From the IMG/VR virus record IMGVR_UViG_3300023119_000004: a stretch of DNA of 64,000 bases. One strand, given 5' to 3'. How positions within the stretch are numbered: the stretch's first letter is position 1; every line of letters begins with the position of its first letter. Both the position numbers and the translations under genes were made by a program. The stretch comes from a virus (lineage: Duplodnaviria; Caudoviricetes). A model generated the notes under the pieces. That model was not told where the DNA came from. It worked only from the letters and a program-made list of their open reading frames with translations, and did no database searches. This document shows positions 1-13,202 of the stretch, piece by piece.

Positions 1-20
1 AAAAATCACTGCCGTTTTCA

Positions 21-120
21 CTGTGGATAAGTCTGTGGATAAGTCTGTGGATTCGTTGTGGATAGGTTGTGGATAACTCGTGATCTGTGGATAACTCTGT
101 GGATAACTCTGTGGATAAGT
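21..120 (-). repeat. Tandem DnaA-box array (8 boxes, 11-12 bp period)
   Basis: TGTGGATAA (reverse complement TTATCCACA, consensus DnaA box) is exact at 22, 34, 68, 86, 98 and 110, with variants at 46 (TGTGGATTC) and 57 (TGTGGATAG). All are in the same orientation; unit (C)TGTGGATAA(G/C)T. Confidence 0.9.
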
Positions 121-156
121 CTTCGCGAACCCTGCCTCTTTGTGTTCGTTCGGGGT

Positions 157-178
157 TAAGTCATTGATTATTAAGAGG
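157..178 (-). promoter_or_regulatory. IHF consensus site, left arm of a 22-bp inverted repeat
   Basis: 157-169 TAAGTCATTGATT is the reverse complement of AATCAATGACTTA, matching WATCAANNNNTTR. The arm matches 246-267 at 20/22. Confidence 0.65.
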
Positions 179-211
179 TTTTTGGTGTCGTTTGAACTCG
201 AACAAGAGAGG

Positions 212-239
212 GGTGCGTATAAGGTTTATTATGTTAAAT
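212..239 (+). other. dif-like XerC/XerD recombination site 1
   Basis: GGTGCGTATAA-GGTTTA-TTATGTTAAAT versus E. coli dif GGTGCGCATAA-TGTATA-TTATGTTAAAT: 25/28 identical, exact XerD arm, 6-bp spacer. Confidence 0.85.
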
Positions 240-245
240 TCAAGA

Positions 246-267
246 CCTGTTAAGAATCAATGACTTA
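246..267 (+). promoter_or_regulatory. IHF consensus site, right arm of inverted repeat
   Basis: AATCAATGACTTA at 255-267 matches WATCAANNNNTTR and lies between the two dif-like sites. Confidence 0.65.
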
Positions 268-285
268 CAGTTCAAAACCGAGCCA

Positions 286-313
286 TTTGCGTATATAATA
301 TATTATGTTAAAT
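286..313 (+). other. dif-like XerC/XerD recombination site 2 (direct repeat of site 1)
   Basis: TTTGCGTATAT-AATATA-TTATGTTAAAT: exact XerD arm, degenerate XerC arm with the TGCGTATA core; starts 74 bp after site 1. Confidence 0.7.
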
Positions 314-420
314 TCGAGGTGGGGCTGAATTTAATTTGATTTTTTGGCTATTTAGGGGTTGACTTTTGGAACCGTTGACCATATACTGTAAAGACAATGA
401 GGGATAAGAGGGAACAAGAT

Positions 421-927
421 ATGCAAGAATTGATGGCAGAATTGGCGAAGCGTAATGCAAAGACCGAGGCGTGGGTTGCTGAGGACCCTGCTAACCGTTG
501 GGCTGGACTATACTCAATGGACGAGGCGCATTGGAGGGAGCGTGGGATCACCAATTTGGTGGACTTTGAGCGTGACGAGTTGGCCACTTATATATACGAG
601 GGCCACAAGGACGCTTTTGGTGTCAAGGGTCGACATTACAATTTTGACTCAATGTCGCTAGAGGACCTTCGATCAGAGGCGGACTATATCAGTCGCTCTG
701 TGAAGGAGCAGATGGAGTTAGAGGCTGAAATGGAGCGTGAGGCCATGCGAAACTTTGAGGAGGCCGTCACCAAGTATGAGGCTATGGGGGCTGGCAGTCG
801 CGAGAATGCGATCCGTTGGTTGCTTCAAGCAGAGGGGTTGGAGAAGGAACATGACCCATCCTACATCTGCTATCACCTGGGGCTACCATATTCAATGGCC
901 AAGAAGTTCGAGGCCTTCACCGTATAG
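421..927 (+). CDS. Early hypothetical protein
   Basis: ORF 397..927; the start is moved to ATG 421 after the GAGGGA-type leader and own promoter; followed by a terminator. Confidence 0.8.
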   Translation: MQELMAELAKRNAKTEAWVAEDPANRWAGLYSMDEAHWRERGITNLVDFERDELATYIYEGHKDAFGVKGRHYNFDSMSLEDLRSEADYISRSVKEQMELEAEMEREAMRNFEEAVTKYEAMGAGSRENAIRWLLQAEGLEKEHDPSYICYHLGLPYSMAKKFEAFTV

Positions 928-984
928 GGAGTGAGTAGAAACACCGTTAGACCTGACCCCTACATATAAGATCAGGCGGGAAGA

Positions 985-1023
985 GAGAGGCGCCCTCGAG
1001 AAAGGCCTCTCATCTTTTTTTTT
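985..1023 (+). terminator. Rho-independent terminator
   Basis: Stem GAGAGGC/GCCTCTC (985-1011) followed by a 9-T tract. Confidence 0.75.
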
Positions 1024-1141
1024 GGGTATACTGAACCTTCAGGCACCTGGGGTGTATTGAACTCCGGTATCTACAATCTAATGCTAACGTTCCCGGCATT
1101 TTGGAAGATGTTGCTTTGCCCTCTTCCCTTATTGTTCTTAC

Positions 1142-1170
1142 AGTATACCTTCTTTTAGCCAAAAGGTCAA
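1142..1170 (-). promoter_or_regulatory. Leftward sigma70 promoter with no convincing gene
   Basis: Minus strand TTGACC-17 bp-TATACT. Confidence 0.65.
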
Positions 1171-1183
1171 CCTTTTTTTTGCC

Positions 1184-1204
1184 TGTGGATAACTCTGTGG
1201 ATAA
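1184..1204 (-). repeat. Second DnaA-box pair
   Basis: TGTGGATAA at 1184 and 1196, same 12-bp unit and orientation as the array at 21-120. Confidence 0.8.
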
Positions 1205-1235
1205 CCGGAATTCCGCCCATCGGGAGCGTAATTAT

Positions 1236-1264
1236 ATTATAACACATTTTGGACGAGATGTCAA
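1236..1264 (-). promoter_or_regulatory. Leftward perfect-consensus sigma70 promoter
   Basis: Minus strand TTGACA-17 bp-TATAAT; divergent from the + promoter at 1299. Confidence 0.75.
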
Positions 1265-1334
1265 CCAAAATAATTCAATTTTTTTTGCATTTTTTGGGTT
1301 GACATTTTGGTAAAAAGAGTCTATAATACGTAGT

Positions 1335-1676
1335 ATGTTAAACAATAAGAGAGCGATTGATATGTTAAAACTTACAAAATGCGGTTCAGAGATCAACGGT
1401 AATGAGTCTACTACTTTTTACAATGTAGAAGGTACTGTTAAACTTGCTATGGACGGTATCTGGGACTATAGCGGTAAAGATACTGTGACTGTTAATACTA
1501 TCACAGTTAATGAAGAAGAAGACGGTTATAAGCACATTAGCGTCACACACGATACAACGTGGGACATTTATACTGATAGCGGTTTTGAGTCTGCTATTAG
1601 CAAAGCACTCGGTTACGAGGTAGCATTTACAGAACAAGGTATGCAAGACAACGGTGTTGCTAGTTTAGAGATATAA
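1335..1676 (+). CDS. Early hypothetical protein
   Basis: 113-aa ORF behind a consensus promoter (the true start may be a few codons later). Confidence 0.75.
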   Translation: MLNNKRAIDMLKLTKCGSEINGNESTTFYNVEGTVKLAMDGIWDYSGKDTVTVNTITVNEEEDGYKHISVTHDTTWDIYTDSGFESAISKALGYEVAFTEQGMQDNGVASLEI

Positions 1677-1751
1677 CGGTAAAAAAGAGGTTGACAAATT
1701 GGTTTATGTGTGCTACAATGTACACATAAACTAAAAAATTGAGAGGGCAAT

Positions 1752-1952
1752 ATGAGAAAACAATTACAAATCGGCACAAAAATCAACTGCCGTTTCGGCG
1801 AGGCCAAGATCACAGCCATCGAACTTTGCGAACACGAAGGTGAGAAAGAAGGCATTCCTATGAAGAAGGTCTGGATCGATCTTAAGGATCGTTGCGTGTT
1901 CTCACTGGATAACGGTCATTGGCAGTACGGCTATCAGGTGGAGGCTGTATAA
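1752..1952 (+). CDS. Early hypothetical protein
   Basis: 66-aa ORF with promoter and GAGGGCA leader. Confidence 0.75.
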   Translation: MRKQLQIGTKINCRFGEAKITAIELCEHEGEKEGIPMKKVWIDLKDRCVFSLDNGHWQYGYQVEAV

Positions 1953-2611
1953 TGAAACGGACTTTACTTGCTACAGGCATCGTGCTGGCCATAACAACTT
2001 CGATGTCGGCTGGTGCTGAGAAACTTAAATCATTCGACCATGCGGCCGAGTTGACTTCGCAGGCCAAGACCATCCTATGGAGAGAACTAAACGAAGCGAA
2101 GGTTCCGGCTAAGGCACATAGAGATATTGTTTGCCTAGCAGAGAACATCTACTTTGAGTCTAGGGCAGAATCCATCGAGGGGAAGGCCGCGGTGGCCAAT
2201 GTGACACGAAACAGGGTCAACAGTGATCTGTTCCCTAATAACTATTGTGACGTGGTTCAACAGGGACCAGTGAGGGAATCATGGAAGACCAAGAAGGATC
2301 CCAACCTGGATGCAAAGGATCGGGTCTACTATCCCATCAAGCATCGTTGTCAGTTCTCATGGTACTGCGATGGTGCCAAGGATATCATCTGGGCTAACAA
2401 GGAACGATCAGGTAAGACTATTCAAGCAAATGCCAAGGCCTGGACCACTAGCGTAGAGGTTGCAATCTGGACCTTGGGCTACGGATCCTATCGTGTTAAT
2501 GACAACACCGAGGGAGCCCTATGGTATTATGCACACAACCTAGTCTATCCTAACTGGGCAGATGAAAAGACTACCACAGCAATCATAGGTAATCACACAT
2601 TTCAAAAGTGA
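1952..2611 (+). CDS. Cell wall hydrolase, SleB/Hydrolase_2 family, with signal peptide
   Basis: CLAENIYFESRAE..GKAAVANVTRNRV, CQFSWYCDG and IGNHTF motifs; hydrophobic N-terminus MKRTLLATGIVLA. Confidence 0.85.
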   Translation: MKRTLLATGIVLAITTSMSAGAEKLKSFDHAAELTSQAKTILWRELNEAKVPAKAHRDIVCLAENIYFESRAESIEGKAAVANVTRNRVNSDLFPNNYCDVVQQGPVRESWKTKKDPNLDAKDRVYYPIKHRCQFSWYCDGAKDIIWANKERSGKTIQANAKAWTTSVEVAIWTLGYGSYRVNDNTEGALWYYAHNLVYPNWADEKTTTAIIGNHTFQK

Positions 2612-2690
2612 GTATTTTGGAAAATAAATGGTTGACTTTTGGTTTAGTTGATGTTATTATATACACATAAACTAAAAAAACGGAGGGCAT

Positions 2691-3062
2691 ATGACATTTT
2701 ACGTTTATCACAAAACAGACTCAAGAATTGCTACTGGTAAGGGCAATACGCATTACGGTCAGCACGAATACAACACAGAAGGTCAAGCAAAAGCGGCGAT
2801 CACTCGTATTGTAAAGAAGGCTCAAGCAAAGCATGATCGTCTAAAGGCAAGCGAATACAGTTGGGATAATGAAAGAGCACAAGAGGCTCTAGATCGTGTG
2901 GCGGATCTTGCTATTGCTGAAAGCGGACACTATCATCAGCACATTGAGCGATATGAAACTGTTTACAGCATCTTTGATCACAATCGTGAGAATCCAATTA
3001 GAGAGAGCGTGAATACCCCGCACTACATGAGCCCCTCATCAGAAACATATTGGTCAATGTAA
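2691..3062 (+). CDS. Early hypothetical protein
   Basis: 123-aa ORF with promoter and GAGGGCA leader. Confidence 0.75.
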   Translation: MTFYVYHKTDSRIATGKGNTHYGQHEYNTEGQAKAAITRIVKKAQAKHDRLKASEYSWDNERAQEALDRVADLAIAESGHYHQHIERYETVYSIFDHNRENPIRESVNTPHYMSPSSETYWSM

Positions 3063-3124
3063 AAAATTGGTTGACAGTATAGCATTTCGGTGCTATACTG
3101 TAAACATAATGAAAGAGAGGGTAT

Positions 3125-3340
3125 ATGAGCAAGACTAAAAATTGGTTAATGGATCAAGAAGAAGAATTCTACTCAATCGCTGATGGGGTGATCGGTGAGT
3201 GTGAGGAGTTGGGTGAATTTGTTGCAAAAATGCAACACCACTCAGATAAGGTTGAATGGACACTAGATCAAGAGGTCGGTGAGAGATTCGAAGATCTATG
3301 TGGTGATCTTTGGAGTGAATATTGGTCAAAATATTTGTAA
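3125..3340 (+). CDS. Small acidic early protein
   Basis: 71-aa ORF with own promoter. Confidence 0.7.
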   Translation: MSKTKNWLMDQEEEFYSIADGVIGECEELGEFVAKMQHHSDKVEWTLDQEVGERFEDLCGDLWSEYWSKYL

Positions 3341-3408
3341 AAAAATGGTTGACTTTTGGTTTAAGAGACTGTATAGTATACATATAAACTAAACAAATGA
3401 GGGCAATT

Positions 3409-3606
3409 ATGAAAACACTTTTTAATTCAATAGCAGGTCTACTACTAATAGGTGGCTTGATTATGATGGCAGGTTCAGCAGGTGACTGTGATGGTCATTG
3501 TGGACCGGGCAATACAATCAGCGAGATGCTGATGATAGCAGGCGTAGGTCTAGCGTTCTTCGTGACTGGTGCCGCAATTCTAATTTCTAACTCACAGGAG
3601 GCGTAA
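3409..3606 (+). CDS. Small two-TM membrane protein
   Basis: Two hydrophobic stretches flanking GDCDGHC; start after GAGGGCA at 3399. Confidence 0.7.
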   Translation: MKTLFNSIAGLLLIGGLIMMAGSAGDCDGHCGPGNTISEMLMIAGVGLAFFVTGAAILISNSQEA

Positions 3607-3834
3607 ATGAAACTTTCAATTCAAGGTTCAAACATGACAGAGATCACAACCGCTCGAGGTAACAAGGTTCTCTACTCATACGAAACGCCAGTTGCTGGAT
3701 GGACCGAACAAGGTGCATTCCGAACTGAAGAGAAGTTCTCGGTGACTACTAGCAAACACATCAACAAATACCTAGGTGGTAAGGATGTGGGCAAGGTAGT
3801 TCCCCAGAAGTGGATCGAAGGGTTGGTCCAATAA
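3607..3834 (+). CDS. Conserved phage hypothetical protein
   Basis: 75-aa ORF (VLYSYETPVAG...TTSKHINKYL), abutting its neighbours. Confidence 0.75.
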   Translation: MKLSIQGSNMTEITTARGNKVLYSYETPVAGWTEQGAFRTEEKFSVTTSKHINKYLGGKDVGKVVPQKWIEGLVQ

Positions 3835-4025
3835 TGAAAAAGATTCTACTCATAGTGGCCCTGGTCAGTCTAACTGGCTGTGGGACTATGAGCGGGAGAG
3901 ATGTGATCAAAAGCATTAACCTTGCCAAGAACGCATCTATGATCACCAAAGCAGGAGTAGAAGAGTCTGTGATTACCAAAACCAAAGACATCTTCGATCC
4001 GGCCAGAGGTGGTGGAAAATGGTAA
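3834..4025 (+). CDS. Small lipoprotein
   Basis: MKKILLIVALVSLTGC: basic N-terminus, hydrophobic core, LTGC lipobox. Confidence 0.7.
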   Translation: MKKILLIVALVSLTGCGTMSGRDVIKSINLAKNASMITKAGVEESVITKTKDIFDPARGGGKW

Positions 4026-4103
4026 AGATATTGGTTGACTTTCATTCCAATCTTTGCTATAATATATAAACAATGAAAGAATAGGCTAAGGAGGCTAAAA
4101 CAA

Positions 4104-4418
4104 ATGACTGATAAACTATATACCGTAGCAGGCACATCGATGTCAAATGGTAAGACCAAAGTAAGGTTCGCGAATGACTATGTAGGTAGATTCAAGATCC
4201 TGACTAAGAATGGTCATGAAAACATCAATCTAGTAGAGTTGGACCAGCCAATGAGTAAGGCTGACGTTTGCAAGTTTTTGCAGGCATCTGATAAGTTCCA
4301 AGACGAAGCATCACAATCTGCGATTGCTGAGTTCGTTGTAAGAAACATCAAGGTAGCACCTGCAACAGCACCTGCACCAACACCAGTAGCAGAAACAGTA
4401 GAACCAGAAGTAGCATAA
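4104..4418 (+). CDS. Early hypothetical protein with Pro/Ala-rich tail
   Basis: 104-aa ORF behind a consensus promoter. Confidence 0.75.
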   Translation: MTDKLYTVAGTSMSNGKTKVRFANDYVGRFKILTKNGHENINLVELDQPMSKADVCKFLQASDKFQDEASQSAIAEFVVRNIKVAPATAPAPTPVAETVEPEVA

Positions 4419-4510
4419 GGTTCGGCACCATTAGGGGTTGACAACAACCCCTAGGTGTGCTATATTAAAACATCATTAGAAGACAATCAATAGAAGGAAC
4501 CGGAATTATC

Positions 4511-4596
4511 GCCCCTGTGGTGGAATTGGTAGACACAAGGGACTTAAAATCCCTCGCTGATATGGCGTGCCGGTTCGAGTCCGGCTGGGGGCACCA
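4511..4596 (+). tRNA. tRNA-Leu (UAA)
   Basis: Acceptor GCCCCTG/TGGGGGC, anticodon arm AGGGA-CTTAAAA-TCCCT, long variable arm, GGTTCGAGTCC T-arm, encoded CCA. Confidence 0.95.
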
Positions 4597-4608
4597 ATTC
4601 ATACATAT

Positions 4609-4686
4609 CTGCCCGTAGTTCAGTTGGATTAGAACAACGGTCTTCTAAACCGTAGGTCGCAGGTTCGAGTCCTGCCGGGCAGGCCA
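4609..4686 (+). tRNA. tRNA-Arg (UCU)
   Basis: Acceptor CTGCCCG/CGGGCAG, anticodon arm ACGGT-CTTCTAA-ACCGT, GGTTCGAGTCC T-arm, encoded CCA. Confidence 0.95.
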
Positions 4687-4690
4687 ATTC

Positions 4691-4780
4691 GTGGCATCAG
4701 AAGATGTCACACTCGGGAGATCAGTGGACAGCCTGATCTTGCCTAAGACAGTCGGTGGGGGTCTTAGAGCACTTTTTTTA
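4691..4780 (+). ncRNA. Candidate structured RNA: three consecutive hairpins after tRNA-Arg
   Basis: Stems GTGGCATC/GATGTCAC, GAGATCAG/CTGATCTT and CTAAGAC/GTCTTAG, then a T-tract. Confidence 0.45.
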
Positions 4781-4843
4781 ATTTTTCGGTTGACAAATTG
4801 GATAGACCGTGCTATTGTAATAGTATAGCAAGAGGAGATCAAG

Positions 4844-5032
4844 ATGCTAAATGTTCATTTCGTTAACCGTGGATACAAAACAGATGATGGATTCAAGAAC
4901 GTGGGTCTAATCAAATTGGACGTTTGTGAGTATACCCAGACTCCTAAAGCACTTATAGAATCACCATACTTCCCAGGAGACACACTTTGGGCTCGTTTTG
5001 AGGGCACTGAATGGGTGTGTGATTTGGATTAA
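4844..5032 (+). CDS. Early hypothetical protein
   Basis: 62-aa ORF with promoter and AGGAG RBS. Confidence 0.7.
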   Translation: MLNVHFVNRGYKTDDGFKNVGLIKLDVCEYTQTPKALIESPYFPGDTLWARFEGTEWVCDLD

Positions 5033-5100
5033 ATTAGGGGTTGACATCCCGTCCAAAAGACTGTATAGTGTAACTATAAACTAAAAAGAAAGAGGGCAAA

Positions 5101-5274
5101 ATGTTAGAGTTAATTGGTTTAATTGCAATCGCATTCGTTATCGTAAAGTTCTTCCCAGACATCATGTTGTTTGCTGTGAAGGCTGGCGTGGTTCTGATCA
5201 TGCTGTATTTCCTACTAGGTGGTCTACTTTGGATCTTTGGTAGTTCAATTGCGGTCCACATCAATACATTTTAA
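5101..5274 (+). CDS. 57-aa membrane protein (below the ORF-track cutoff)
   Basis: Hand translation MLELIGLIAIAFVIVKFFPDIMLFAVKAGVVLIMLYFLLGGLLWIFGSSIAVHINTF; promoter at 5041 and GAGGGCA at 5092. Confidence 0.8.
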   Translation: MLELIGLIAIAFVIVKFFPDIMLFAVKAGVVLIMLYFLLGGLLWIFGSSIAVHINTF

Positions 5275-5338
5275 TGGTTGACAAACGAATCAAAAGAGTG
5301 TATTATATAAACATAAACTAAAAAAGCAGGAGGGCACA

Positions 5339-5575
5339 ATGGCAACAGATTTGAAATCACACGCACAGGACGTATCATTGACACGGTTCTGGGGCGGAGA
5401 GAAACGCGGAGTATGCGTTCAGGTTACAGCCAAGAGAGCAAGTTCACAACCTACGGGTTTGTTACCCGACACTGGGTTCGAAACAGTTCAGTTGACAAAA
5501 GCACAAGCGGCGGCATTGGCGGCTGACTTGTTGGACTTTGCACAGAACAGAGAAGTTGAACATTTTGGCGAATAA
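5339..5575 (+). CDS. Early hypothetical protein
   Basis: 78-aa ORF with promoter and GAGGGCA leader. Confidence 0.75.
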   Translation: MATDLKSHAQDVSLTRFWGGEKRGVCVQVTAKRASSQPTGLLPDTGFETVQLTKAQAAALAADLLDFAQNREVEHFGE

Positions 5576-5640
5576 GTACTTGACATTTAAATCCGTAGAC
5601 TGTATAGTATACATATAATTTAATTAACAGAGAGGGCAAT

Positions 5641-6642
5641 ATGAAATCCATTAGAATCAAATCAGGCAGTTACAAGATCCGAGGCAAGGACGTAGAACTA
5701 AGCGGCATGGTGTTTCCACTAGTCGAAGAGTTCAAGGTTGGTGCCCAGGGTGGTTACGTAACTGTAGACGGAACTGCTGTAGCAGGCTTTCCAGATCGTA
5801 ACATCAAGATCAAAGTTAACAGCGCCGACGACTACGAAGCGACAAGTGCAAAGGTAACAGCACGAGAAGAGTCGGACGAAGAGACCATGGAGCGAATCGC
5901 AGAGCGATTTGATATCCTAGAAGACATGACACGTGCCGCCAAGAAAGGTGATGTACGTGCAATGATCGTAACAGGCCCTCCGGGTGTTGGTAAGTCGTTT
6001 GGTGTAGAGAAAGTGCTAGGCAAGCACGATCTGATCAGCACACTAGGTGAGCGTCCTCCCAAGTATCAAGTTGTCAAGGGTGCAATGTCAGCAATTGGAC
6101 TCTACTGTAAACTGTACAACTACGCGGACAAGGACAACGTACTAGTGTTTGATGACTGTGACTCAGTACTACAGGATGACCTTTCACTTAATATTTTGAA
6201 AGCCGCACTTGATTCAAAGAAGACTAGAATGATTCACTGGAATACGGATTCATTCAAGTTGCGTAACGAAGGCGTGCCTGATTCATTCGAGTTCAAGGGT
6301 TCATGCATATTCATTACCAACATCAAGTTCGACAACGTTAAGAGCAAGAAACTGCGTGATCACCTGGAAGCAATTGAATCACGTTGCCACTACATTGATC
6401 TTACAATCGACACAGAACGAGAGAAGATGTTGCGTATCAAGCAGATCGTTAGAGATGGTATGCTGGATCAGCACGAACTAAGTGAAGAAACACATCAGGC
6501 AGTTGTGGACTTCATTGACATTAATAAAAAGAAATTACGTGAGTTGAGTCTAAGGACTGTGCTCAAAGTAGCCGACTTAGCCAAAGCGTTCCCTGCTAAA
6601 TGGGAAGCGATGGCTGAGAATACTGTTCTGAAACGAGCCTAA
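5641..6642 (+). CDS. AAA+ family P-loop ATPase
   Basis: Walker A GPPGVGKS, Walker B VLVFDDCD, FITN and ESR motifs. Confidence 0.85.
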   Translation: MKSIRIKSGSYKIRGKDVELSGMVFPLVEEFKVGAQGGYVTVDGTAVAGFPDRNIKIKVNSADDYEATSAKVTAREESDEETMERIAERFDILEDMTRAAKKGDVRAMIVTGPPGVGKSFGVEKVLGKHDLISTLGERPPKYQVVKGAMSAIGLYCKLYNYADKDNVLVFDDCDSVLQDDLSLNILKAALDSKKTRMIHWNTDSFKLRNEGVPDSFEFKGSCIFITNIKFDNVKSKKLRDHLEAIESRCHYIDLTIDTEREKMLRIKQIVRDGMLDQHELSEETHQAVVDFIDINKKKLRELSLRTVLKVADLAKAFPAKWEAMAENTVLKRA

Positions 6643-6709
6643 TCACTGCCCTCAACCTGGCTCTGAGCAGTATTAGAACCCCTGGGATGTGCCCTCGTCC
6701 TGGGGGTTC
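6640..6709 (+). ncRNA. Double-hairpin element with TGCCCTC loop (copy A)
   Basis: 12-bp stem 6676-6709 with loop TGTGCCCTCG; the upstream hairpin carries a 17-mer shared exactly with 8317-8333. Confidence 0.4.
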
Positions 6710-6809
6710 ACCTTGACAAAAACTCCATAAAATATAGGCAAATTAGGGGTTGACATTTTGGATCTTTGAGTGCATAATGTATATACACACTAAGGAAAAG
6801 AGGGCAAAT

Positions 6810-7145
6810 ATGCAAGACACATACGTAGTAAACAAGTTCAAGGCAGGCGAAGTACATTTCCAAAACGGCGCCGCAGGTTGGTTGTTTGATAACGGTGAGT
6901 TCCGTCCACTAATGGATGACGCCATGGAGCAACTTCTAGAAGCAGGATTGGTTGATCAAGCAACAGTAGAGATCACAGCACAAGCCAGAGACGTGTACAC
7001 AGAGAAGAGTATCCGTGAGTACATCGAAGCACAGCGTAACCGTACCCAAGAGCAGATCGCAGAAGAGCGTTTTGAAGCAAGAGCGGCTATGGGACCAGGC
7101 GTTGAAATGGTTAACATCATAACAGGAGAACGATACACAACCTAA
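6810..7145 (+). CDS. Early hypothetical protein
   Basis: Start moved to ATG 6810 after the promoter at 6750 and GAGGGCA at 6800. Confidence 0.75.
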   Translation: MQDTYVVNKFKAGEVHFQNGAAGWLFDNGEFRPLMDDAMEQLLEAGLVDQATVEITAQARDVYTEKSIREYIEAQRNRTQEQIAEERFEARAAMGPGVEMVNIITGERYTT

Positions 7146-7225
7146 GGGTTGTGTGTTTTTTGGTTGACATTTGAAGGTGTTGACTGTATTATAATACTAT
7201 AAACTAACAAAGAGGGCTAAACATT

Positions 7226-7573
7226 ATGAACATTCAAGACATACACATCCAAGCAACAGCAATGGCACAGAAGGCAGTAGCAGAGTACTTAGAGGACTGG
7301 ACTGCTAAGACAGGCGGCAATCAATATGGTGAGCCAATGTATTGTGGCTTTGCTTGGGTAGATGTAAGTGTAACTAGAACCAACAGCAAAGAGGCTAAAC
7401 TGCTAGAGAGCATTGGCTTCAAGCCTAGTTGGAGACCCAAGCAGATGCAACTTTGGGATCCAGCAAAGCATAACGGACAGAGCATGGACTGTAAGGAAGT
7501 GGGTGCCCAGGCTTACGCAGAGGTGCTAAGACAGCATGGCTTTAAGGCTAGTATGGGAAGCAGAGCAGACTAA
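7226..7573 (+). CDS. Early hypothetical protein
   Basis: 115-aa ORF (CGFAWV...GAQAYAEVL) with own promoter. Confidence 0.8.
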   Translation: MNIQDIHIQATAMAQKAVAEYLEDWTAKTGGNQYGEPMYCGFAWVDVSVTRTNSKEAKLLESIGFKPSWRPKQMQLWDPAKHNGQSMDCKEVGAQAYAEVLRQHGFKASMGSRAD

Positions 7574-7611
7574 CACGTTGCAGGATACGTTGCAGAACGT
7601 GCAACGAGAAA

Positions 7612-7640
7612 GGGCCGGTGGAGACATCGGCCTTTTTTTT
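7612..7640 (+). terminator. Terminator ending the early region
   Basis: GGCCGGTG-GAGA-CATCGGCC followed by T8. Confidence 0.8.
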
Positions 7641-7876
7641 GACAGAAATTTCTCGAGGGGCATGGGGCATAAGTCTTTATTTTTAAAGCACTTTTTGCAA
7701 GTGGGCAGGGGTAGAATCACCACCCAGATTTGATAAGTACTTCTTTTTAAAAAACTGTGCTATGTCATAAACTGCTACAGACCCCATTTCTGTGTGTAAA
7801 TACAGTTGTAAGCACAGTAGTAAACAGTTTCAGCAATTATCTATTAGATTGCACGTTTCACTAGTGTACAGAGTGT

Positions 7877-8188
7877 ATGAGTGCTATTTTACACACAGGA
7901 AACTCTGTTTATACTGTGCTTACGCTCTATATAAGGATCTTCGCTATTACTAATACTACTACCCATAAGCAATTCAATCACTATGCTGTATATACACGTG
8001 ACCCTGACTATGTACGTATTATGCGTATTGTAAAGCGTCTAGGATTCAAGTTTGAAATTCACGTTATGCGTACTCGCTTTTGGGTTCCGTGCGATTCAAA
8101 GTATAACAGTCTATTTGCTGTTCGCTGTGTGGAGGTCTCAGATGAAGTGGATCATAGCACAGGACTTAAACACATAAGTGAGATATAA
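7877..8188 (+). CDS. Hypothetical protein
   Basis: 103-aa ORF (YAVYTRDP...RTRFWVP); start uncertain; TAAATAC motif upstream near 7797. Confidence 0.5.
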   Translation: MSAILHTGNSVYTVLTLYIRIFAITNTTTHKQFNHYAVYTRDPDYVRIMRIVKRLGFKFEIHVMRTRFWVPCDSKYNSLFAVRCVEVSDEVDHSTGLKHISEI

Positions 8189-8272
8189 AAAACTTCTCGG
8201 CAAAAACACCAAGTACTTCACAAAATTTTTTTGCAGTATATTTTTTTTGGGTGCAAGGGGAATCGGAGCCAT

Positions 8273-8351
8273 AAAAAAAGGGACTGCCCTCTGTGTCCCT
8301 TTAGTGCATTACAAAACCCTCAACCTGGCTCTGTTCTACACTAGTATTTAG
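8273..8351. ncRNA. Double-hairpin element with TGCCCTC loop (copy B)
   Basis: AAAGGGAC/GTCCCTTT stem with loop TGCCCTCTGT, plus the shared 17-mer at 8317-8333. On the minus strand it is bounded by CTAAATAC (8344-8351) and a U-tract. Confidence 0.4.
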
Positions 8352-8402
8352 ATACAGCACAATAGTTATTAAGTATACACATAATGGTTGCATAAATACA
8401 GT

Positions 8403-9161
8403 ATGGCCAATAGAAAACACTACGACTTTGAACAAATGGTTACGGGTGGATACCTGTCAGATCACACGCACAATCACAAGTTCGGCGCCGCGCCTTCAAT
8501 ATCAATTAACACCACAGCAAGTATTTGGGACGTCGGCGACACACTTTATCCTTGGACGGCATTGGACACTCCAGCGGTAGTAAATGTAGAACGCAACGAT
8601 GCCGCAGACACAGGATTGATTGTTACCGTAATAGGATTAGACAGTGATTGGAACGTTCAAGAAGAACAAATCACAATCACAGGTGCGGACCAAGTGGGCA
8701 CCAAACTATGGCGTAGGGTGAACAGAGCCTACGTCAGTTCAGGCACAGCCGTAGTGAATGTGGGCAACATTGACATTGAAGCAGGTGCCGCAGGTGGTAC
8801 CACAGTTGCTCGTATTACAGCCAACCTTGGACAGACACTGATGTGTGTTTATACCATACCAGCAGGATACATTGGATACTTGTACCAAGGCACTATGACT
8901 GTACAGGCTAACGCAGATGCTACAGGTTATATGTTTGTAAGACGCAATGGCGAAGGCGTTACATTTAGAGTGGGACATACCTTTGAAGTTGCTGGCGGAT
9001 CACAGTATAATTACAAGTTCTCTTTCCCTCCAGCAATACCAGAAAAAAGCGACATTGATGTAAGAGCCCTAGTTAGAAGTAACAATGCTAGAGTTACAGC
9101 AACGTTTGACATCCTGCTTGTAGAGAACGACCCCGAAGCACCAATAAGTTCAAGCCTATAA
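8403..9161 (+). CDS. Hypothetical, probably virion-associated protein
   Basis: Long ORF; ATG 8403 follows the late-type ATAAATAC motif; beta-rich, Gly/Thr-rich. Confidence 0.7.
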   Translation: MANRKHYDFEQMVTGGYLSDHTHNHKFGAAPSISINTTASIWDVGDTLYPWTALDTPAVVNVERNDAADTGLIVTVIGLDSDWNVQEEQITITGADQVGTKLWRRVNRAYVSSGTAVVNVGNIDIEAGAAGGTTVARITANLGQTLMCVYTIPAGYIGYLYQGTMTVQANADATGYMFVRRNGEGVTFRVGHTFEVAGGSQYNYKFSFPPAIPEKSDIDVRALVRSNNARVTATFDILLVENDPEAPISSSL

Positions 9162-9198
9162 TATACCCAAAACACATACCTGCTATGCTAAATACTAA

Positions 9199-9250
9199 TA
9201 CGTTCGAGCAACACGCTTGGAAGTAGACACTATGTCGAAGGAACGCACCT
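9199..9250 (+). ncRNA. Glutamine riboswitch (glnA-motif class)
   Basis: P1 CGTTC/GAACG, P2 GAGC/GCTT, junction GGAAGTA, P3 GAC/GTC, then GAAG. This is the layout and conserved residues of the glnA/Downstream-peptide RNAs. It sits between a late promoter motif (9188) and AGGAGG-ATG 9272. Confidence 0.85.
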
Positions 9251-9271
9251 AACTTTAACAAGGAGGGTGAC

Positions 9272-9466
9272 ATGGATAGACACTCATTTATGCTCAAGCA
9301 ATACAGTGAGCAACAACTACGTAAAAAGAAAGAAATGGAATTATGGAAGGCTCGTCATGAGGTGGAAATAAATGGTCATGGTACTTCTGGTTATGTAGTA
9401 AAGCATGGTCCTAACAAAGATAAAATCTTAGGACATCAGTCTACTAAATCTACCAACAACTGGTAG
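9272..9466 (+). CDS. 64-aa basic protein under riboswitch control
   Basis: Strong RBS AGGAGG; directly downstream of the riboswitch. Confidence 0.8.
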   Translation: MDRHSFMLKQYSEQQLRKKKEMELWKARHEVEINGHGTSGYVVKHGPNKDKILGHQSTKSTNNW

Positions 9467-9470
9467 TCAA

Positions 9471-9526
9471 AAAAAAGAGCAATCCGGGTGTACACATAAT
9501 AATACGTATACCCGTTGCTCTTATAA
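9471..9526. terminator. Long hairpin, probably a bidirectional terminator
   Basis: AAGAGCAA/TTGCTCTT plus CGGGTGTAC/GTATACCCG stems between convergent genes. Confidence 0.6.
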
Positions 9527-9547
9527 AAATTTAAGTGAAAAATTTTG

Positions 9548-9772
9548 TTATTGATTAGCCTTAACTACAGGCCATAGTTCTTTTACTAGTTTGTCTTTGG
9601 TTTGTCTACGATCAAGTTCTATACCGTGAACACGACCCAAGTCTTCTAGTTGTGTTTTGGTCATTTTAGCAAGTTCAGCACGTTTAAGTTTACGCGGTGT
9701 CTCTACAGGTTTATCCAATACTAGAGGCTCCTGTACAGTACTGCCAAATAACGATTTTAACCATTTTAACAT
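9548..9772 (-). CDS. Small protein with Rho-N/HeH-like helical motif
   Basis: LAKMTKTQLEDLGRVHGIELDRRQTKDKLV; TATAAATA upstream at 9789-9796. Confidence 0.7.
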   Translation of the reverse strand: MLKWLKSLFGSTVQEPLVLDKPVETPRKLKRAELAKMTKTQLEDLGRVHGIELDRRQTKDKLVKELWPVVKANQ

Positions 9773-9859
9773 AATAGTACCTCCGTTTTATTTATAGGGT
9801 TAACCATCGCCCCGTGTGCAGTCTGAACGGTGTGCAACGAAGTATAGCACACACTTAAA

Positions 9860-10160
9860 AAGGCGTCTTAAACGCAATATAAGCGTCATACACACGTCAG
9901 ATAGGGCAAAGTACTACAAAGATGCTTAAATGCAAAATAAGAGCCATTTAGGGGTGATTTTCATACGTTTAAGACGTCTTAAATGCATGGTGAAAAAGAG
10001 GTAGGCATTCGGATTAAAGAGCCAAATTCCGGCGCTCCGTTTTCTAGCGTTTTACCGCTACCGCTTCGCGGATCTAAAATCTACCGCACCGATTTGCTTA
10101 AATGGCTTTCCACCGCTACCGCGGTCGCTACGCTCTAAATGGCTTTTCCGCTCCGCGGCT
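9860..10160. repeat. Non-coding palindrome and degenerate repeat block
   Basis: Perfect 16-bp palindrome TTTAAGACGTCTTAAA (9968-9983); repeated CTTAAATGC/TAAATGGCT and CCGCTACCGC units. Confidence 0.55.
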
Positions 10161-10201
10161 ATTCTATATCCACTTAATGTGTGTATCTACAGGCATAACT
10201 A

Positions 10202-10441
10202 ATGTTCATGAATACTAAATGGGAAATACGTGTAGCACTTATATTGATTGTAATACTTGTGAGTATAGCACTACAAGGTTGCGGTCAAGCACCTGTAATT
10301 GATCGTGTGCTAGATCCACAACCGCAAGAACAAGTAGCAGAAGATAAAGATAGTACACTTGAAGAACCAGGCATTCCGAACTTTAAAGGTATAGCAGATG
10401 CACTAGGATGTGTATTTGCTCCTGAGTCTTGTAATAACTAA
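10202..10441 (+). CDS. Small lipoprotein
   Basis: Hydrophobic N-region ending in an LQGC lipobox. Confidence 0.65.
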   Translation: MFMNTKWEIRVALILIVILVSIALQGCGQAPVIDRVLDPQPQEQVAEDKDSTLEEPGIPNFKGIADALGCVFAPESCNN

Positions 10442-10468
10442 ATACAAGAGATTGCTAATGGAGAGTCG

Positions 10469-10657
10469 ATGTCTGATTGGGATAGTATACGTAAACCTTA
10501 TCAAGTTCATATACAGCACTTGTGTAAACTTATTGACCACCATAGCGAACAGTATATCAAAACAGCAGAGCCATTTCATAAAGAACAATACGATCGTTTA
10601 GTGGAGTGTGTACACGCCCTAAAGACTTATATTACAACACAAGAACAACACAATTAG
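10469..10657 (+). CDS. Hypothetical protein
   Basis: 62-aa ORF with GGAG RBS. Confidence 0.6.
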   Translation: MSDWDSIRKPYQVHIQHLCKLIDHHSEQYIKTAEPFHKEQYDRLVECVHALKTYITTQEQHN

Positions 10658-10665
10658 AACTTAAT

Positions 10666-10956
10666 TTAGTGAGGCTGTCCGAACCGTGTCTTGTTCTTCT
10701 TTCGAAAGAATACAAATGTATCTGATCTAGGAAGGTATCTATAGTCTAACGGGTTCCAATGGTCTATAGTCCGAATGTGATTTGCCCACTCTGTTTTATG
10801 TTTAGGATCCCATCTGTCGTTATCTACTTTAACAACATATCTATTTTTACTGGAGTAATCCTTGAGTGCTTGTTCCATAATAGCAACAAGTTCGACATCA
10901 ATCATCGCTGTGCCGTCTATAGTATATTTTTTAGTTTGCCTGGTAACTCTCTGCAT
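10666..10956 (-). CDS. Hypothetical protein
   Basis: 96-aa ORF with a late-type motif upstream. Confidence 0.6.
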   Translation of the reverse strand: MQRVTRQTKKYTIDGTAMIDVELVAIMEQALKDYSSKNRYVVKVDNDRWDPKHKTEWANHIRTIDHWNPLDYRYLPRSDTFVFFRKKNKTRFGQPH

Positions 10957-10973
10957 ACTAAAAGTATATTTAT

Positions 10974-11771
10974 CTAACTTTTAAGCCAATGGGTAAATTT
11001 AGTAGGTTTAGACTCATTTCCATATAACTCGTTGCTAGTAGCAATAAGTTTAGAGCCTAGTTCTTTGTGTGTAAGTCTTTCATGACCTTTGAGTATGTGT
11101 CTGTTAAATCCTATTTGTAGATCTAATGGCTGTCCTGTTAGTATGCTGTTTGCACACTTCTGTGCCATAATCTCGTGATTACATCTTAGCATATGATTGT
11201 AACGTGTATCAATTCCACTGCTATACCATTCTTCATCGTCCTTGGGTGTCATAAACTCTGCGTTACTTACTGTAGCAGTTAGATCACCTATAACAGGAAT
11301 CATATCGGTATAGTCAATTGGCATAGTAAACCCTGGTATAAGAAGAAGGGTAAACCCGTAACGTTGCTGTGTTCCTTTAAGCCAGGCAACCTGATGTTCA
11401 AATCTAAATGCGTCTAAATCGTCTCTTTGTATGTAATTAACATAACCCTTTACAGCATCAACAGCGTCTTTGTTATTTGTTTCCTTTGCAAAGTTATCCC
11501 AATTACTAATCATGTAGTTAGATAGTTCTGGTTTGTCTTTGAAGAACCAATAGCGATATACACTTGTTAATACAACTACAACAATGTCGTCTTTGGTAAT
11601 GTCACTTAACGATTCTCTAATCTTCATTAAGATCCAATCATTGCTAGTACCAATCATGCTGTGATTGACCAAGCCATTGACTCTAAGTTTTTCTGCTAGG
11701 TTTCTGGTCCAGGTCCAGTTAGTGTCGTAATCTACGGTAAAACTATCACCGAAGAAATATATCTTACGCAT
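10974..11771 (-). CDS. SGNH/GDSL-like hypothetical protein
   Basis: N-terminal YFFGDSF and C-terminal NHM motif. Confidence 0.6.
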   Translation of the reverse strand: MRKIYFFGDSFTVDYDTNWTWTRNLAEKLRVNGLVNHSMIGTSNDWILMKIRESLSDITKDDIVVVVLTSVYRYWFFKDKPELSNYMISNWDNFAKETNNKDAVDAVKGYVNYIQRDDLDAFRFEHQVAWLKGTQQRYGFTLLLIPGFTMPIDYTDMIPVIGDLTATVSNAEFMTPKDDEEWYSSGIDTRYNHMLRCNHEIMAQKCANSILTGQPLDLQIGFNRHILKGHERLTHKELGSKLIATSNELYGNESKPTKFTHWLKS

Positions 11772-13202
11772 TTATTCCTCGTCATTATCTAAATTATTTA
11801 AGAACTGTCTAAGTTTAGTACTGTCTGTTTCTGCTCTTACTTTTGGAGCAGTAGTACCTTGTGCTGGATCTTTAGGTTCATCTGGATTTAAATCTTGTGT
11901 TACTGTTGATCCTCTTTTAAGTGTACTCATGATTGGACTAGAGTTATTTGAATATCCTGCATCGTCATCGTCATCAAGATCTGTAATACGTAGTGTATCA
12001 ATATTAAATTCTAAATCAATCTTACTACCTACACCACTACTACTTCTTGTTTTCATTAACTGTATTTGATAACGTCCACGCTCACGCATTGCTCTACTTG
12101 TAAAGATACCGATCACGTTATCAGCAGTTTGGATCTTACTCAATCCACCACTGATGTGACTGTGATCAAATTCAATTTCTTCTACAGATGCTCTGTTCAA
12201 CTGTGATGCTGTAACAAAGATACAACCTAATTCCATTGCTAGGTTACGTAGTTCTTCTGATACATACTTGTCTTTAATAAACAAATTCTCTGCACTAATT
12301 CTTTGTCCAATTGGCATTAACAAGTCTAAGTAGTCAATTAACAATACATCAATCTTTTTGTTTGTTTTAATTTCATACTCTTTAATAAAACTTCTAATAT
12401 CATTTGCAGTCTTACCACTTGGCATATATTTGATTTGAAATGCTCCAGACTTCTTGCCAATCATCTTGACTTTCATCTCAACATTATCTAAGTCTCTAAA
12501 AATCTCTCTGCTTGGTATATCTGTAGTCATACTATCTACACGCATAGCAACTAACTTCTCACTCAATTCAAGTGTTAAGTAAACTACGTTCATTCCTTGT
12601 AGTGCCCAGTTAACACCTAAGTTTGCTAGGAACAAAGATTTACCTGCACCTGAACCACCTGCAAAGATGTTTAGTTCACCTTTGTTAAATCCACCAAATA
12701 GTTTCTTGTCTAAACTTTCCCAACCAGTACTTACTTGTCCGTTGTTATCTTTTAGTCCTTGTAGTCTACCTTTAGGATCAGCAAAGTAATCTAGTCCTAG
12801 ATCTTTTTGCAAACCAATTTGTACTGCGTCTTTTACTTTTTGTTCTACTGGACCATACTCACCTTTTTCAAGCAAGTCAGCACTTTCAAGTATTGCACGT
12901 TCTAGTGCTTTGTGTCTACTAAATGTTTCAAAGTCACCTAGTAACCAATCATAGTGTTGTTCATTAAGTCCTGTTGGAATCTCAAACTTAACTTGTCCTT
13001 GTGCGTTTACAATCTTTTCTGTTGGAAGTGTGTTGTGTTCGTTGACAAAGTTTTTAATAAACTCTGCTTGTGGTTGTATTTTTCTATCGAATAAACTTGG
13101 ATCAAAGATACCTTGGCAACGCACAAATGTTTCTGCGTCACTTAACATCATTTCTAAATATGTTTTTTGGATATCGAATCCGTAGTCAACGTTTTGCTTC
13201 AT
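11772..13202 (-). CDS. gp41: Replicative DnaB-like helicase (T4 gp41-like)
   Basis: GGSGAGKS Walker A, LELSE, IDYLDL, TASQLNR and KTR motifs. Confidence 0.92.
   Translation of the reverse strand: MKQNVDYGFDIQKTYLEMMLSDAETFVRCQGIFDPSLFDRKIQPQAEFIKNFVNEHNTLPTEKIVNAQGQVKFEIPTGLNEQHYDWLLGDFETFSRHKALERAILESADLLEKGEYGPVEQKVKDAVQIGLQKDLGLDYFADPKGRLQGLKDNNGQVSTGWESLDKKLFGGFNKGELNIFAGGSGAGKSLFLANLGVNWALQGMNVVYLTLELSEKLVAMRVDSMTTDIPSREIFRDLDNVEMKVKMIGKKSGAFQIKYMPSGKTANDIRSFIKEYEIKTNKKIDVLLIDYLDLLMPIGQRISAENLFIKDKYVSEELRNLAMELGCIFVTASQLNRASVEEIEFDHSHISGGLSKIQTADNVIGIFTSRAMRERGRYQIQLMKTRSSSGVGSKIDLEFNIDTLRITDLDDDDDAGYSNNSSPIMSTLKRGSTVTQDLNPDEPKDPAQGTTAPKVRAETDSTKLRQFLNNLDNDEE

Follow-up and report, generated by a model that had tools for sequence, protein, structure and literature searches.

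Hairpin loops complementary to early ribosome sites in the 3' untranslated regions of uncultured T4-like phages

The cuckoo/CcsR small RNAs of alphaproteobacteria (RSs0680a-d, alpha-r14) are built from two to four adjacent hairpins, in which variable stems carry a fixed, C-rich, anti-Shine-Dalgarno-like loop, CCUCCUCCC, and the CcsR RNAs are produced from the untranslated 3' region (3'UTR) of ccaF1 (PMC4615179; PMC8034643). In Staphylococcus aureus, pairing between the 5' and 3'UTRs of icaR (PMC3868564) and the C-rich loops of RNAIII, RsaE and SprX (PMC2837412) block initiation at the Shine-Dalgarno sequence. T4-like phages possess promoter-early stem-loop (PeSL) cassettes, which consist of a stem-loop, a sigma-70 early promoter, a Shine-Dalgarno sequence and an ATG (PMC2839356; PMC4122927); the PeSLs described by Arbiol et al. 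(2010) and Comeau et al. (2014) have a conserved stem and a loop with no assigned role or relation to the Shine-Dalgarno sequence (PMC2839356; PMC4122927). The RegB protein of phage T4 picks early ribosome sites by GGAG plus its 3' context, and is blocked by structure (PMC3014915). Here we describe hairpins found in 64,000 nt of DNA from an uncultured member of the Caudoviricetes (IMG/VR record IMGVR_UViG_3300023119_000004; this whole stretch is referred to as the window). These hairpins lie in the 3'UTR of an early gene at 5641-6642, and their loops are complementary to GAGGGCA, the ribosome site of the phage's own early genes. Full-text literature searches turned up no description of such loops in phages.

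Early ribosome sites and the loops that complement them

The window belongs to an uncultured giant salt-marsh phage, a large T4-like myovirus whose genes include those for a tail sheath of 1082 aa, a helicase and a virion protein longer than 2200 aa; megablast and blastn searches of 5600-8700 against cultured-phage records found no close cultured relative. Its early region, on the + strand, extends from base 1 to about 8200 and contains about ten near-consensus TTGACA-17-TATAAT (sigma-70) promoters, each upstream of a small gene. The promoter-led early genes carry (A)GAGGGCA 2-3 nt ahead of the start codon, and we refer to this ribosome site as the tag. GAGGGCA and its complement TGCCCTC are found at 12 sites in the window (2.9 expected), eight of them on the + strand and four on the - strand. 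Seven of the + strand sites stand 2-3 nt before the ATG of early genes that each have a near-consensus sigma-70 promoter (1743, 2683, 3399, 5092, 5330, 5632-5638 and 6800-6806), and the eighth, at 5000, is within an open reading frame (ORF). Of the - strand sites, those at 6647, 6690 and 8285 are loop sites and the one at 1117 lies downstream of a leftward promoter. None of the 52 middle or late gene starts of the window has GAGGGCA; these starts follow short GGAG/AGGA sites instead, or have an ATAAATA late box standing a few bases ahead of the ATG.

Gene 5641-6642, whose ribosome site is the tag at 5632-5638, is an early gene for a 333-aa AAA-ATPase-like protein (phrog_1250; Pfam AAA_16 below threshold), and its 3'UTR holds two hairpins on the + strand. 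The first, the stem-loop SL1 (6619-6674), spans the stop codon, so that its 5' arm is the coding end of the gene. It has an outer stem of 10 bp, including one G.U pair (6619-6628/6665-6674), an inner stem GAGCC (6635-6639)/GGCTC (6659-6663) and a 19-nt loop (6640-6658) that contains the TAA stop and TGCCCTC (6647-6653); the GCCCTC of this loop has a mean probability of being unpaired of 0.97 in the predicted fold. The second, hairpin A (6676-6709), has a 12-bp stem, GAACCCCTGGGA/TCCTGGGGGTTC, with two G.T pairs, and a 10-nt loop, TGTGCCCTCG (6688-6697). An earlier, sequence-only reading of the window had described hairpin A together with a hairpin B at 8277-8302 (+ strand; stem AAAGGGAC/GTCCCTTT, loop TGCCCTCTGT), both with TGCCCTC in their loops, and a 17-mer, CCCTCAACCTGGCTCTG, shared by the two loci; both hairpins are present, and the 17-mer is exact at 6649-6665 and 8317-8333. 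That reading missed the TGCCCTC of SL1, the third in number, which lies just ahead of the copy-A 17-mer. It also missed a fourth loop of this kind, in an intrinsic terminator on the + strand (985-1023) that follows ORF 397-927 and comprises a stem (985-991/1005-1011), the loop GCCCTCGAGAAAG (992-1004) and nine T residues (1015-1023).

The + strand of the window contains six GCCCTC words, all in the first 8.3 kb, and four of them are these loops, in which the motif is predicted to be unpaired with probabilities of 0.83-0.97. The two others are a Walker-A codon string in gene 5641-6642 and the complement of a leftward leader at 1117-1123. The Walker-A-coding GGCCCTCC was excluded from corrected in-loop counts; a more lenient in-loop criterion had a background of about 20%. 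A search of 1-12000 against Rfam (E<=1) gave no match for the hairpin elements, and six related loci gave only tRNA.

The proposal that G-U pairs favour the + strand for copy A agrees with the predicted folds of the region, at -31.7 kcal/mol (z -3.8) on the + strand vs -27.2 kcal/mol (z -1.4) on the - strand. The idea that copy A is a free-standing small-RNA gene finds no support; copy A is the 3'UTR of gene 5641-6642 and has no promoter of its own. Hairpin A is followed on its 3' side by CACCTTGACA, which lacks the U-tract of an intrinsic terminator. In the closest relative, L096, the 36 nt at 6675-6710 are identical in DNA that is otherwise about 73% identical, suggesting that hairpin A is under purifying selection. 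The more distant L367 has the same hairpin-A base and downstream sequence, and compensatory changes in the inner stem. As a separate observation, TTCACCTTGACAAAAACTCCATAAAAT, just 3' of hairpin A (6710-6740), is letter-identical in L367 (3560-3590), and TTCACC(T)TT of this stretch is kept even in relatives with the tag GGAGCGA; the stretch also includes a TTGACA without a properly spaced -10 box.

The copy-A 17-mer (6649-6665, + strand) runs from within the SL1 loop, through the inner 3' arm, as far as the outer 3' arm, of which it includes the first base. It has orthologous variants, CCCTCAACCCTGGCTC(A/T)G, at the same position in L096 and L367. Within the window the two exact copies (6649 and 8317) have no third at up to three mismatches, and none of 100 shuffles gave two matches; among viral contigs the exact 17-mer had only four unrelated chance matches. 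The sequence-only reading placed it in a hairpin adjacent to each TGCCCTC loop, in swapped order. The sequence identity stands, but copy A belongs to SL1, and the apparent swap at B is nesting, because the helix of the surrounding element (element B, described below) encloses hairpin B.

Relatives were collected from IMG/VR as three protein-anchored sets of 80 loci each, around the 115-aa gene at 7226-7573, around the AAA-ATPase-like gene 5641-6642, and around the homolog of the latter from a sister group. GCCCUC loops form a family with members in over 50 contigs of uncultured T4-like phages, with one to five (usually two to four) loops in tandem hairpins. Among loci of the window's own group (>=65% identical), 51 of 52 have GCCCTC one to five times in the 3'UTR of the ATPase-like gene, nearly always in loops; in 29 more distant loci (62-65% identical) these 3'UTR hairpins are absent because the next gene begins at once. 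A hairpin that spans the stop codon and has a AAUGCCCUC-type loop, with different stems, is also present in L005, L010, L062, L069 and L079. The last hairpin of an array is often a true terminator with a U-run, and the family members of L005, L010, L062 and L079 are true terminators. The terminator at 985-1011 has an ortholog in L007 in which GCCCTCGAGAAAG is kept and the stem is changed, and related loops, GCCCTCNNAGAAAG, occur at other loci.

The commonest loop of the family is UGUGCCCUCG, and hairpin A is a member of this conserved class. When distinct contexts of TGTGCCCTCG were taken with no structural filter, all 35 were flanked by at least three base pairs and 15 by at least eight; the reverse complement of the loop 10-mer, on the same strand, had such flanks of at least three base pairs in 0 of 19 contexts. 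Across 31 aligned hairpins, all ten columns of the loop are invariant, and the three variable closing pairs show four to five pair types each; as the rows were selected for pairing, it is this diversity of pair types that counts, and not their 100% pairing. A covariance model built from the 31 hairpins, R1, had 47 matches in the 410-kb set of GAGGGCA-type loci and two in the 432-kb sister-group set, and all 49 had the same orientation as the early genes. Hairpin A is the sole significant match of the window (32.9 bits, E 1e-7); it was itself a training row of the model, and its twin in L096 and 45 matches at other loci behave alike.

The loop UGUGCCCUCG is the complement of CGAGGGCACA, and early sites read (A/C)GAGGGCA(A/C)(A/T), so that 7-10 nt can pair with the loop. 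Predicted duplexes of loop A with 12 early leaders of the window have a mean energy of -13.3 kcal/mol, nine of them within -14.2 to -18.7 kcal/mol (the tag at 5632-5638 gives -14.2 kcal/mol), and those with 38 middle or late leaders have a mean of -5.7 kcal/mol and a best value of -10.0 kcal/mol. In the sister group the early tag is GGAGCGAA, and there loops of the form (A)UUCGCUCC or AUCCUCGCUCC stand after early genes on at least seven unrelated stems (L081/L295, L299, L300, L301/L066, L078, L353, L026, L027, L310, L318, L342, L346, L357 and L374). In L066, L078, L300 and L301 the UUCGCUCC-type loop sits in a hairpin orthologous to hairpin A, with the base GAACCC...GGGTTCACC, of which L081 has the near-variant GAGCCC...GGGTTCACC. 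The loop motif has been lost in L298, an exception to the match between tag and loop. As a control, we took the commonest 7-nt word right before gene starts in each of 21 loci that have other purine-rich sites (such as AAGGAG, AGGAGA, GAGAGGC and TAGGAGC); loci were set aside where this word lies within either tag or is no ribosome site. In these 21 loci the complement of the word occurred as only three isolated copies, in L039, in L344 and, lacking a real stem, in L074, and no loop family recurred.

The complementarity between loop and leader that the sequence-only reading had noticed is thus real, conserved and co-varying, GCCCUC going with GAGGGCA and UUCGCUCC with GGAGCGAA. Based on these alignments, we conclude that there is a genuine, conserved and co-varying family of anti-ribosome-site hairpins, of which hairpin A and SL1 are members.

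A further hairpin, CCG-AUUCGCUCC-CGG, recurs in GGAGCGAA-tag phages, from freshwater or other sources, between a gene end and a strong terminator (L310 4340-4400, L318 4470-4520, L342 4360-4400, L346 4390-4430, L357, L374 3925-3965, and L353 4360-4440, which has two loops on different stems). ARAGORN finds no tRNA-like genes at these hairpins. At 879-960 of L026, AUUCGCUCC occurs together with UAGCCCUCA, the latter in a 14-bp terminator.

Probable contact with early leaders and competing explanations

Based on our findings, we consider it reasonably probable that the 3'UTR loops pair with early ribosome sites and thereby limit or time the synthesis of early proteins. The invariant and exposed loop, the free stems, the restriction to the sense strand, the tandem repeats, the position in 3'UTRs, the complementarity to the tag and the joint change of loop and tag together make pairing the best reading. 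What we observe is the anatomy of these elements, their conservation, their restriction to one strand, the joint variation of loop and tag, and favourable predicted duplex energies; pairing in the cell, and repression as its effect, we infer. In such a mechanism, a stable 3'UTR array would remain on the mRNA or be trimmed to a small RNA, and its loops would pair, mostly in trans, across the Shine-Dalgarno region of early leaders. Binding of the 30S subunit would be blocked and early-protein synthesis limited or timed, and middle and late mRNAs, which have no tag, would stay free. By analogy, repression of initiation would be the expected outcome.

Trans-antisense action on early leaders, as the sequence-only reading had suggested, is the mechanism that fits best. 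Few early genes have loops and almost all keep the identical extended tag, which a shared partner acting in trans would explain, and two to five loops per 3'UTR surpass the need of a single 5' end. Action in cis is also possible. As hairpin A has no U-tract, read-through RNA would place its loop 104 nt upstream of the tag at 6800-6806, the ribosome site of the next gene (6810-7145), and the loop could then pair on the same transcript; the promoter of that gene (6750-6778) falls between loop A and the tag. Some ribosome sites of phage T4 are hidden by read-through RNA, and an action in cis would resemble these cases.

Several points weigh against this interpretation. Loops are present on only three to four of the approximately 20 early genes of the window, and a loop-to-linear contact of 7-8 nt is short. 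The co-variation comes from what are essentially two lineages and has exceptions. L026, with the tag GGAGCGA, carries both loop types adjacent to each other, which may represent a transitional or dual-specificity state, and L139 and L124 retain GCCCUC loops though most of their sites read GGAGAT or GGAGCA. Element B has no ortholog in any relative fetched. The direction of the effect is not fixed by the sequence, and the loops might protect early mRNAs against a RegB-like nuclease. It should also be noted that the support is sequence-based and that the RNA-library runs are assembled contigs. Six metatranscriptomic runs cover the whole region as contigs, which carry no information on strand, start or end, with thin coverage over 7839-8506; the ends of some contigs fall at 6679 and 6721, close to hairpin A, and we do not take contig ends as transcript ends.

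The invariant loop could instead be the site of a phage or host RNA-binding protein, such as an antiterminator, a factor for RNA processing or stability, or a regulator that is sequestered as by CsrB/RsmZ. The tandem hairpins would then serve as a platform or sponge, and complementarity to ribosome sites would be secondary. A fixed loop on freely varying stems, repeated two to five times, has the classic look of a protein-binding hairpin, and the loops that L139 and L124 keep despite mostly different ribosome sites would suit a protein ligand. However, a protein site leaves unexplained both the exact complementarity of 7-10 nt between the loop and the early tag and the joint switch of loop and tag in the GGAGCGAA group. 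No candidate protein co-occurs with the hairpins, and Pfam shows no RNA-binding domains in the neighbouring genes. We regard this explanation as unlikely.

A second alternative is that the hairpins are merely the terminator or attenuator part of PeSL-type cassettes, serving transcription punctuation and the shuffling of genes by recombination, with TGCCCTC and the 17-mer as recombination scars or products of gene conversion. The order of hairpin A, promoter 6750-6778, GAGGGCA and ATG fits such a layout, the genes after the hairpin differ between the window and L096, and the 17-mer of element B equals the window's own copy A. Hairpin B also resembles the A3-4G3-loop-C3T3-4 stem-loops of nt-1/KVP40 (PMC4122927). 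Moreover, RNA-library contigs connect 6756/6768 to 5301, that is, two early promoters: in two runs, joints lead from promoter 6750-6778 back into promoter 5278-5306, with 4-16 other letters between. These joints would fit strain variants or circles formed by cassette recombination, and an assembly artefact at repeated promoter words is also possible. Nevertheless, gene conversion should homogenise stems too, whereas in these hairpins the loops alone are fixed and the stems vary; published PeSLs conserve stems and not loops, and no link between loop and Shine-Dalgarno sequence has been described for them. Hairpin A lacks a U-tract, and recombination predicts no co-variation of loop and tag. As a full account of the hairpins we find this explanation improbable.

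Element B, the leftward strand and other features of the window

Element B (8264-8333, + strand) starts 76 nt after the stop of ORF 7877-8188, and hence lies in the 3'UTR of that ORF. It consists of a helix, CGGAGCCA (8264-8271)/TGGCTCTG (8326-8333, one G.U pair), around hairpin B, and on the + strand CCCTCAACC is left unpaired inside this helix. The + strand fold has an energy of -21.2 kcal/mol (z -2.2), and in hairpin B the probability of being unpaired is 0.88 for GCCCTC and 0.95 for CCCTC. Hairpin B falls outside the conserved class of hairpin A: R1, which finds A, does not find hairpin B even at E<=10 with filters off, and B has only the heptamer TGCCCTC in common with the class. Hairpin B alone has a homopolymer upstream, A7, which on the minus strand reads as T7 after the stem.

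The 17-mer of element B (8317-8333, + strand) equals the window's own copy A and not the variants of L096 and L367, which points to an origin by intragenomic duplication. Element B resembles an incomplete copy of SL1 whose loop encloses another TGCCCTC hairpin; it is a lineage-specific, atypical local derivative that may add one more + strand anti-tag site. Searches for relatives of B gave nothing further. The exact hairpin-B 20-mer had no match among viral contigs, and no counterpart was found where the flanking genes have relatives (the 252-aa virion gene has its homologs inside late clusters elsewhere, and the 103-aa ORF has no close relative). A metagenome scan with the pattern CCCTCAACC(N0-1)TGGCTC, which is too short to be specific, gave more than 119 chance matches and none that blastn related to the window.

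The sequence-only reading had seen in the minus strand of B a late promoter motif and a U-tailed terminator, and hence an RNA of about 65 nt, made from a late promoter at 8351-8345, that displays GAGGGCA. Such an RNA (candidate 8269-8351, - strand: CTAAATA at 8351-8345, a first hairpin, hairpin B, and T7 at 8279-8273) would mimic the leaders and, late in infection, titrate the anti-tag loops or a leader-binding factor. The seven T residues after the stem (8279-8273) are there, and only on the minus strand does B have the form of an intrinsic terminator. A second terminator-like hairpin on that strand (8213-8196) suggests that leftward transcription may end near B. The minus-strand fold has two hairpins and a U-tail (-28.1 kcal/mol, z -2.95), and its loop, ACAGAGGGCA, exposes GAGGGC with a probability of being unpaired of 0.96. 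The promoter motif did not stand: in the window, NTAAATA lies 4-10 nt before gene starts in 6 of 14 cases with A, 3 of 7 with G and 2 of 21 with T, but in 0 of 15 with C (CTAAATA), so that 8351-8345 does not qualify as a T4-type late promoter, and no sigma-70-like minus-strand promoter was found near B. A 65-nt minus-strand RNA is thus possible but unsupported. Furthermore, loop B is oriented as in the family of sense-strand hairpins. Read on the + strand, the helix around it contains a G.U pair, and C8269T, a natural variant in one RNA-library contig, leaves the affected pair intact, as U.G, on that strand only, although this is weak evidence. We consider a leader-mimicking RNA from the minus strand very doubtful. 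Element B also has the look of a terminator for leftward transcription.

A conserved non-coding module downstream of the 115-aa gene lies close to element B. It comprises the palindrome AAGTACTT, two T-runs, GGG-N7-CCC(ATTT) and a TAAATA box that stands a few bases ahead of an ATG, and copies are found at 7735-7800 and 8211-8262 of the window, 4536-4610 and 4780-4845 of L007, 4300-4372 of L016, 4510-4575 of L022 and 2216-2270 of L096. The second copy in the window is followed by element B in place of an ORF. The module looks like an operator and promoter of another (middle or late) transcription class.

Many late genes without a Shine-Dalgarno sequence have a late box, (A/G/T)TAAATA, only 4-10 nt before the start codon (for example at 8392, and on the minus strand at 39585, 45197, 17661 and 10973), and given this spacing late mRNAs may have no leader or hardly any. 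The minus strand has two leftward promoters of the sigma-70 type, at 1117-1170 and 1236-1264, and one of the two matches the consensus perfectly. One leads to an early-type leader with GAGGGCA (1123-1117) and without a convincing ORF, which may represent a non-coding RNA with the tag exposed; leftward transcripts from these promoters would traverse the hairpin at 985-1011 in antisense. Genes for tRNA-Leu(UAA) and tRNA-Arg(UCU) are situated at 4511-4686 (+ strand), inside the early region, and a glutamine riboswitch aptamer (9199-9249, + strand; 38.1 bits, over the gathering score) stands upstream of a 64-aa ORF. AGCT is absent from the 64 kb (219 expected from base composition), as is ACATGT (21 expected), a pattern that looks like strong avoidance of restriction sites (AluI-type for AGCT); TCGA, GCGC and CATG are depleted. 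An apparent avoidance of GCCCTC/GAGGGC, with none in 9601-64000, was dismissed, since a higher-order Markov model expects about one to two and the deficit is not significant.

Implications and relation to known systems

If the loops do pair with early leaders, phages would join the users of multi-hairpin anti-Shine-Dalgarno RNAs, and pairing would account for the conservation of early ribosome sites outside the stretch that base-pairs with 16S rRNA. Early shut-off in large lytic phages is known mainly through proteins of T4; the sequences analysed here point to an RNA solution that is conserved among many uncultured giant phages of aquatic habitats. The two forms in which tag and loop co-vary amount to a natural compensatory-mutation experiment and, were pairing true, would provide an orthogonal tag/anti-tag pair of possible use in synthetic biology. 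We speculate further about a private, RNA-only addressing of translation, to which we give only a slim chance. In such a system each lineage would have its own early tag, joined to the Shine-Dalgarno sequence; a multi-hairpin anti-tag RNA, set free from the 3'UTRs of early genes, would build up and silence the entire early class at a fixed time; the minus strand of B would act as a tag mimic by which this switch is reset or buffered; and tag and anti-tag would co-evolve as lock and key. If true, this would be an RNA counterpart of RegB/RegA of T4, and the lock and key could insulate co-infecting phages from one another.

Early mRNAs of T4 are singled out through a feature of the ribosome site, and the role proposed here, the ending of early translation, would be equivalent; however, the T4 agents are an endoribonuclease, RegB, and a repressor protein, RegA, whereas the agent in these phages would be an RNA. 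With icaR and RNAIII the hairpins share an unpaired C-rich motif, in a 3'UTR or in the loop of a small RNA, which in those systems pairs with a Shine-Dalgarno region. They are cellular systems of Gram-positive bacteria that control a single gene or regulon, while in the phages a whole temporal class would be targeted, by tandem loops.

The likeness to PeSL cassettes lies in the succession of hairpin A (6676-6709), promoter (6750-6778, 11/12 matches), GAGGGCA (6800) and ATG (6810), and in the repetition of this unit across a variable early region with possible signs of cassette exchange. The difference is that the phage loop is invariant and complementary to the Shine-Dalgarno region of the cassette itself and the stems vary; hairpin A, lacking a U-tract and having stems that differ between relatives, does not fit the picture of a terminator or attenuator with a conserved stem, as in PeSLs.

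The closest known system is cuckoo/CcsR, in whose manner the phage elements would work without being members of it. Both have adjacent hairpins (SL1 and hairpin A here, up to five in relatives), free stems and a position in a 3'UTR. Further marks of the cuckoo/CcsR family are 3'UTR release by RNase E and association with Hfq or CcaF1. The phage loops, however, are GCCCUC/UGUGCCCUCG or UUCGCUCC and not CCUCCUCCC, and have no match in Rfam; the elements are carried by lytic phages and not by bacterial chromosomes; and the upstream gene is AAA-ATPase-like, where that of CcsR is DUF1127. Most importantly, the complement of the phage loop is a private, extended ribosome site of one temporal class, which co-varies with the loop. 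Overall, by analogy with these systems, we propose a cuckoo/CcsR-like mode of action that would operate inside PeSL-like early cassettes.

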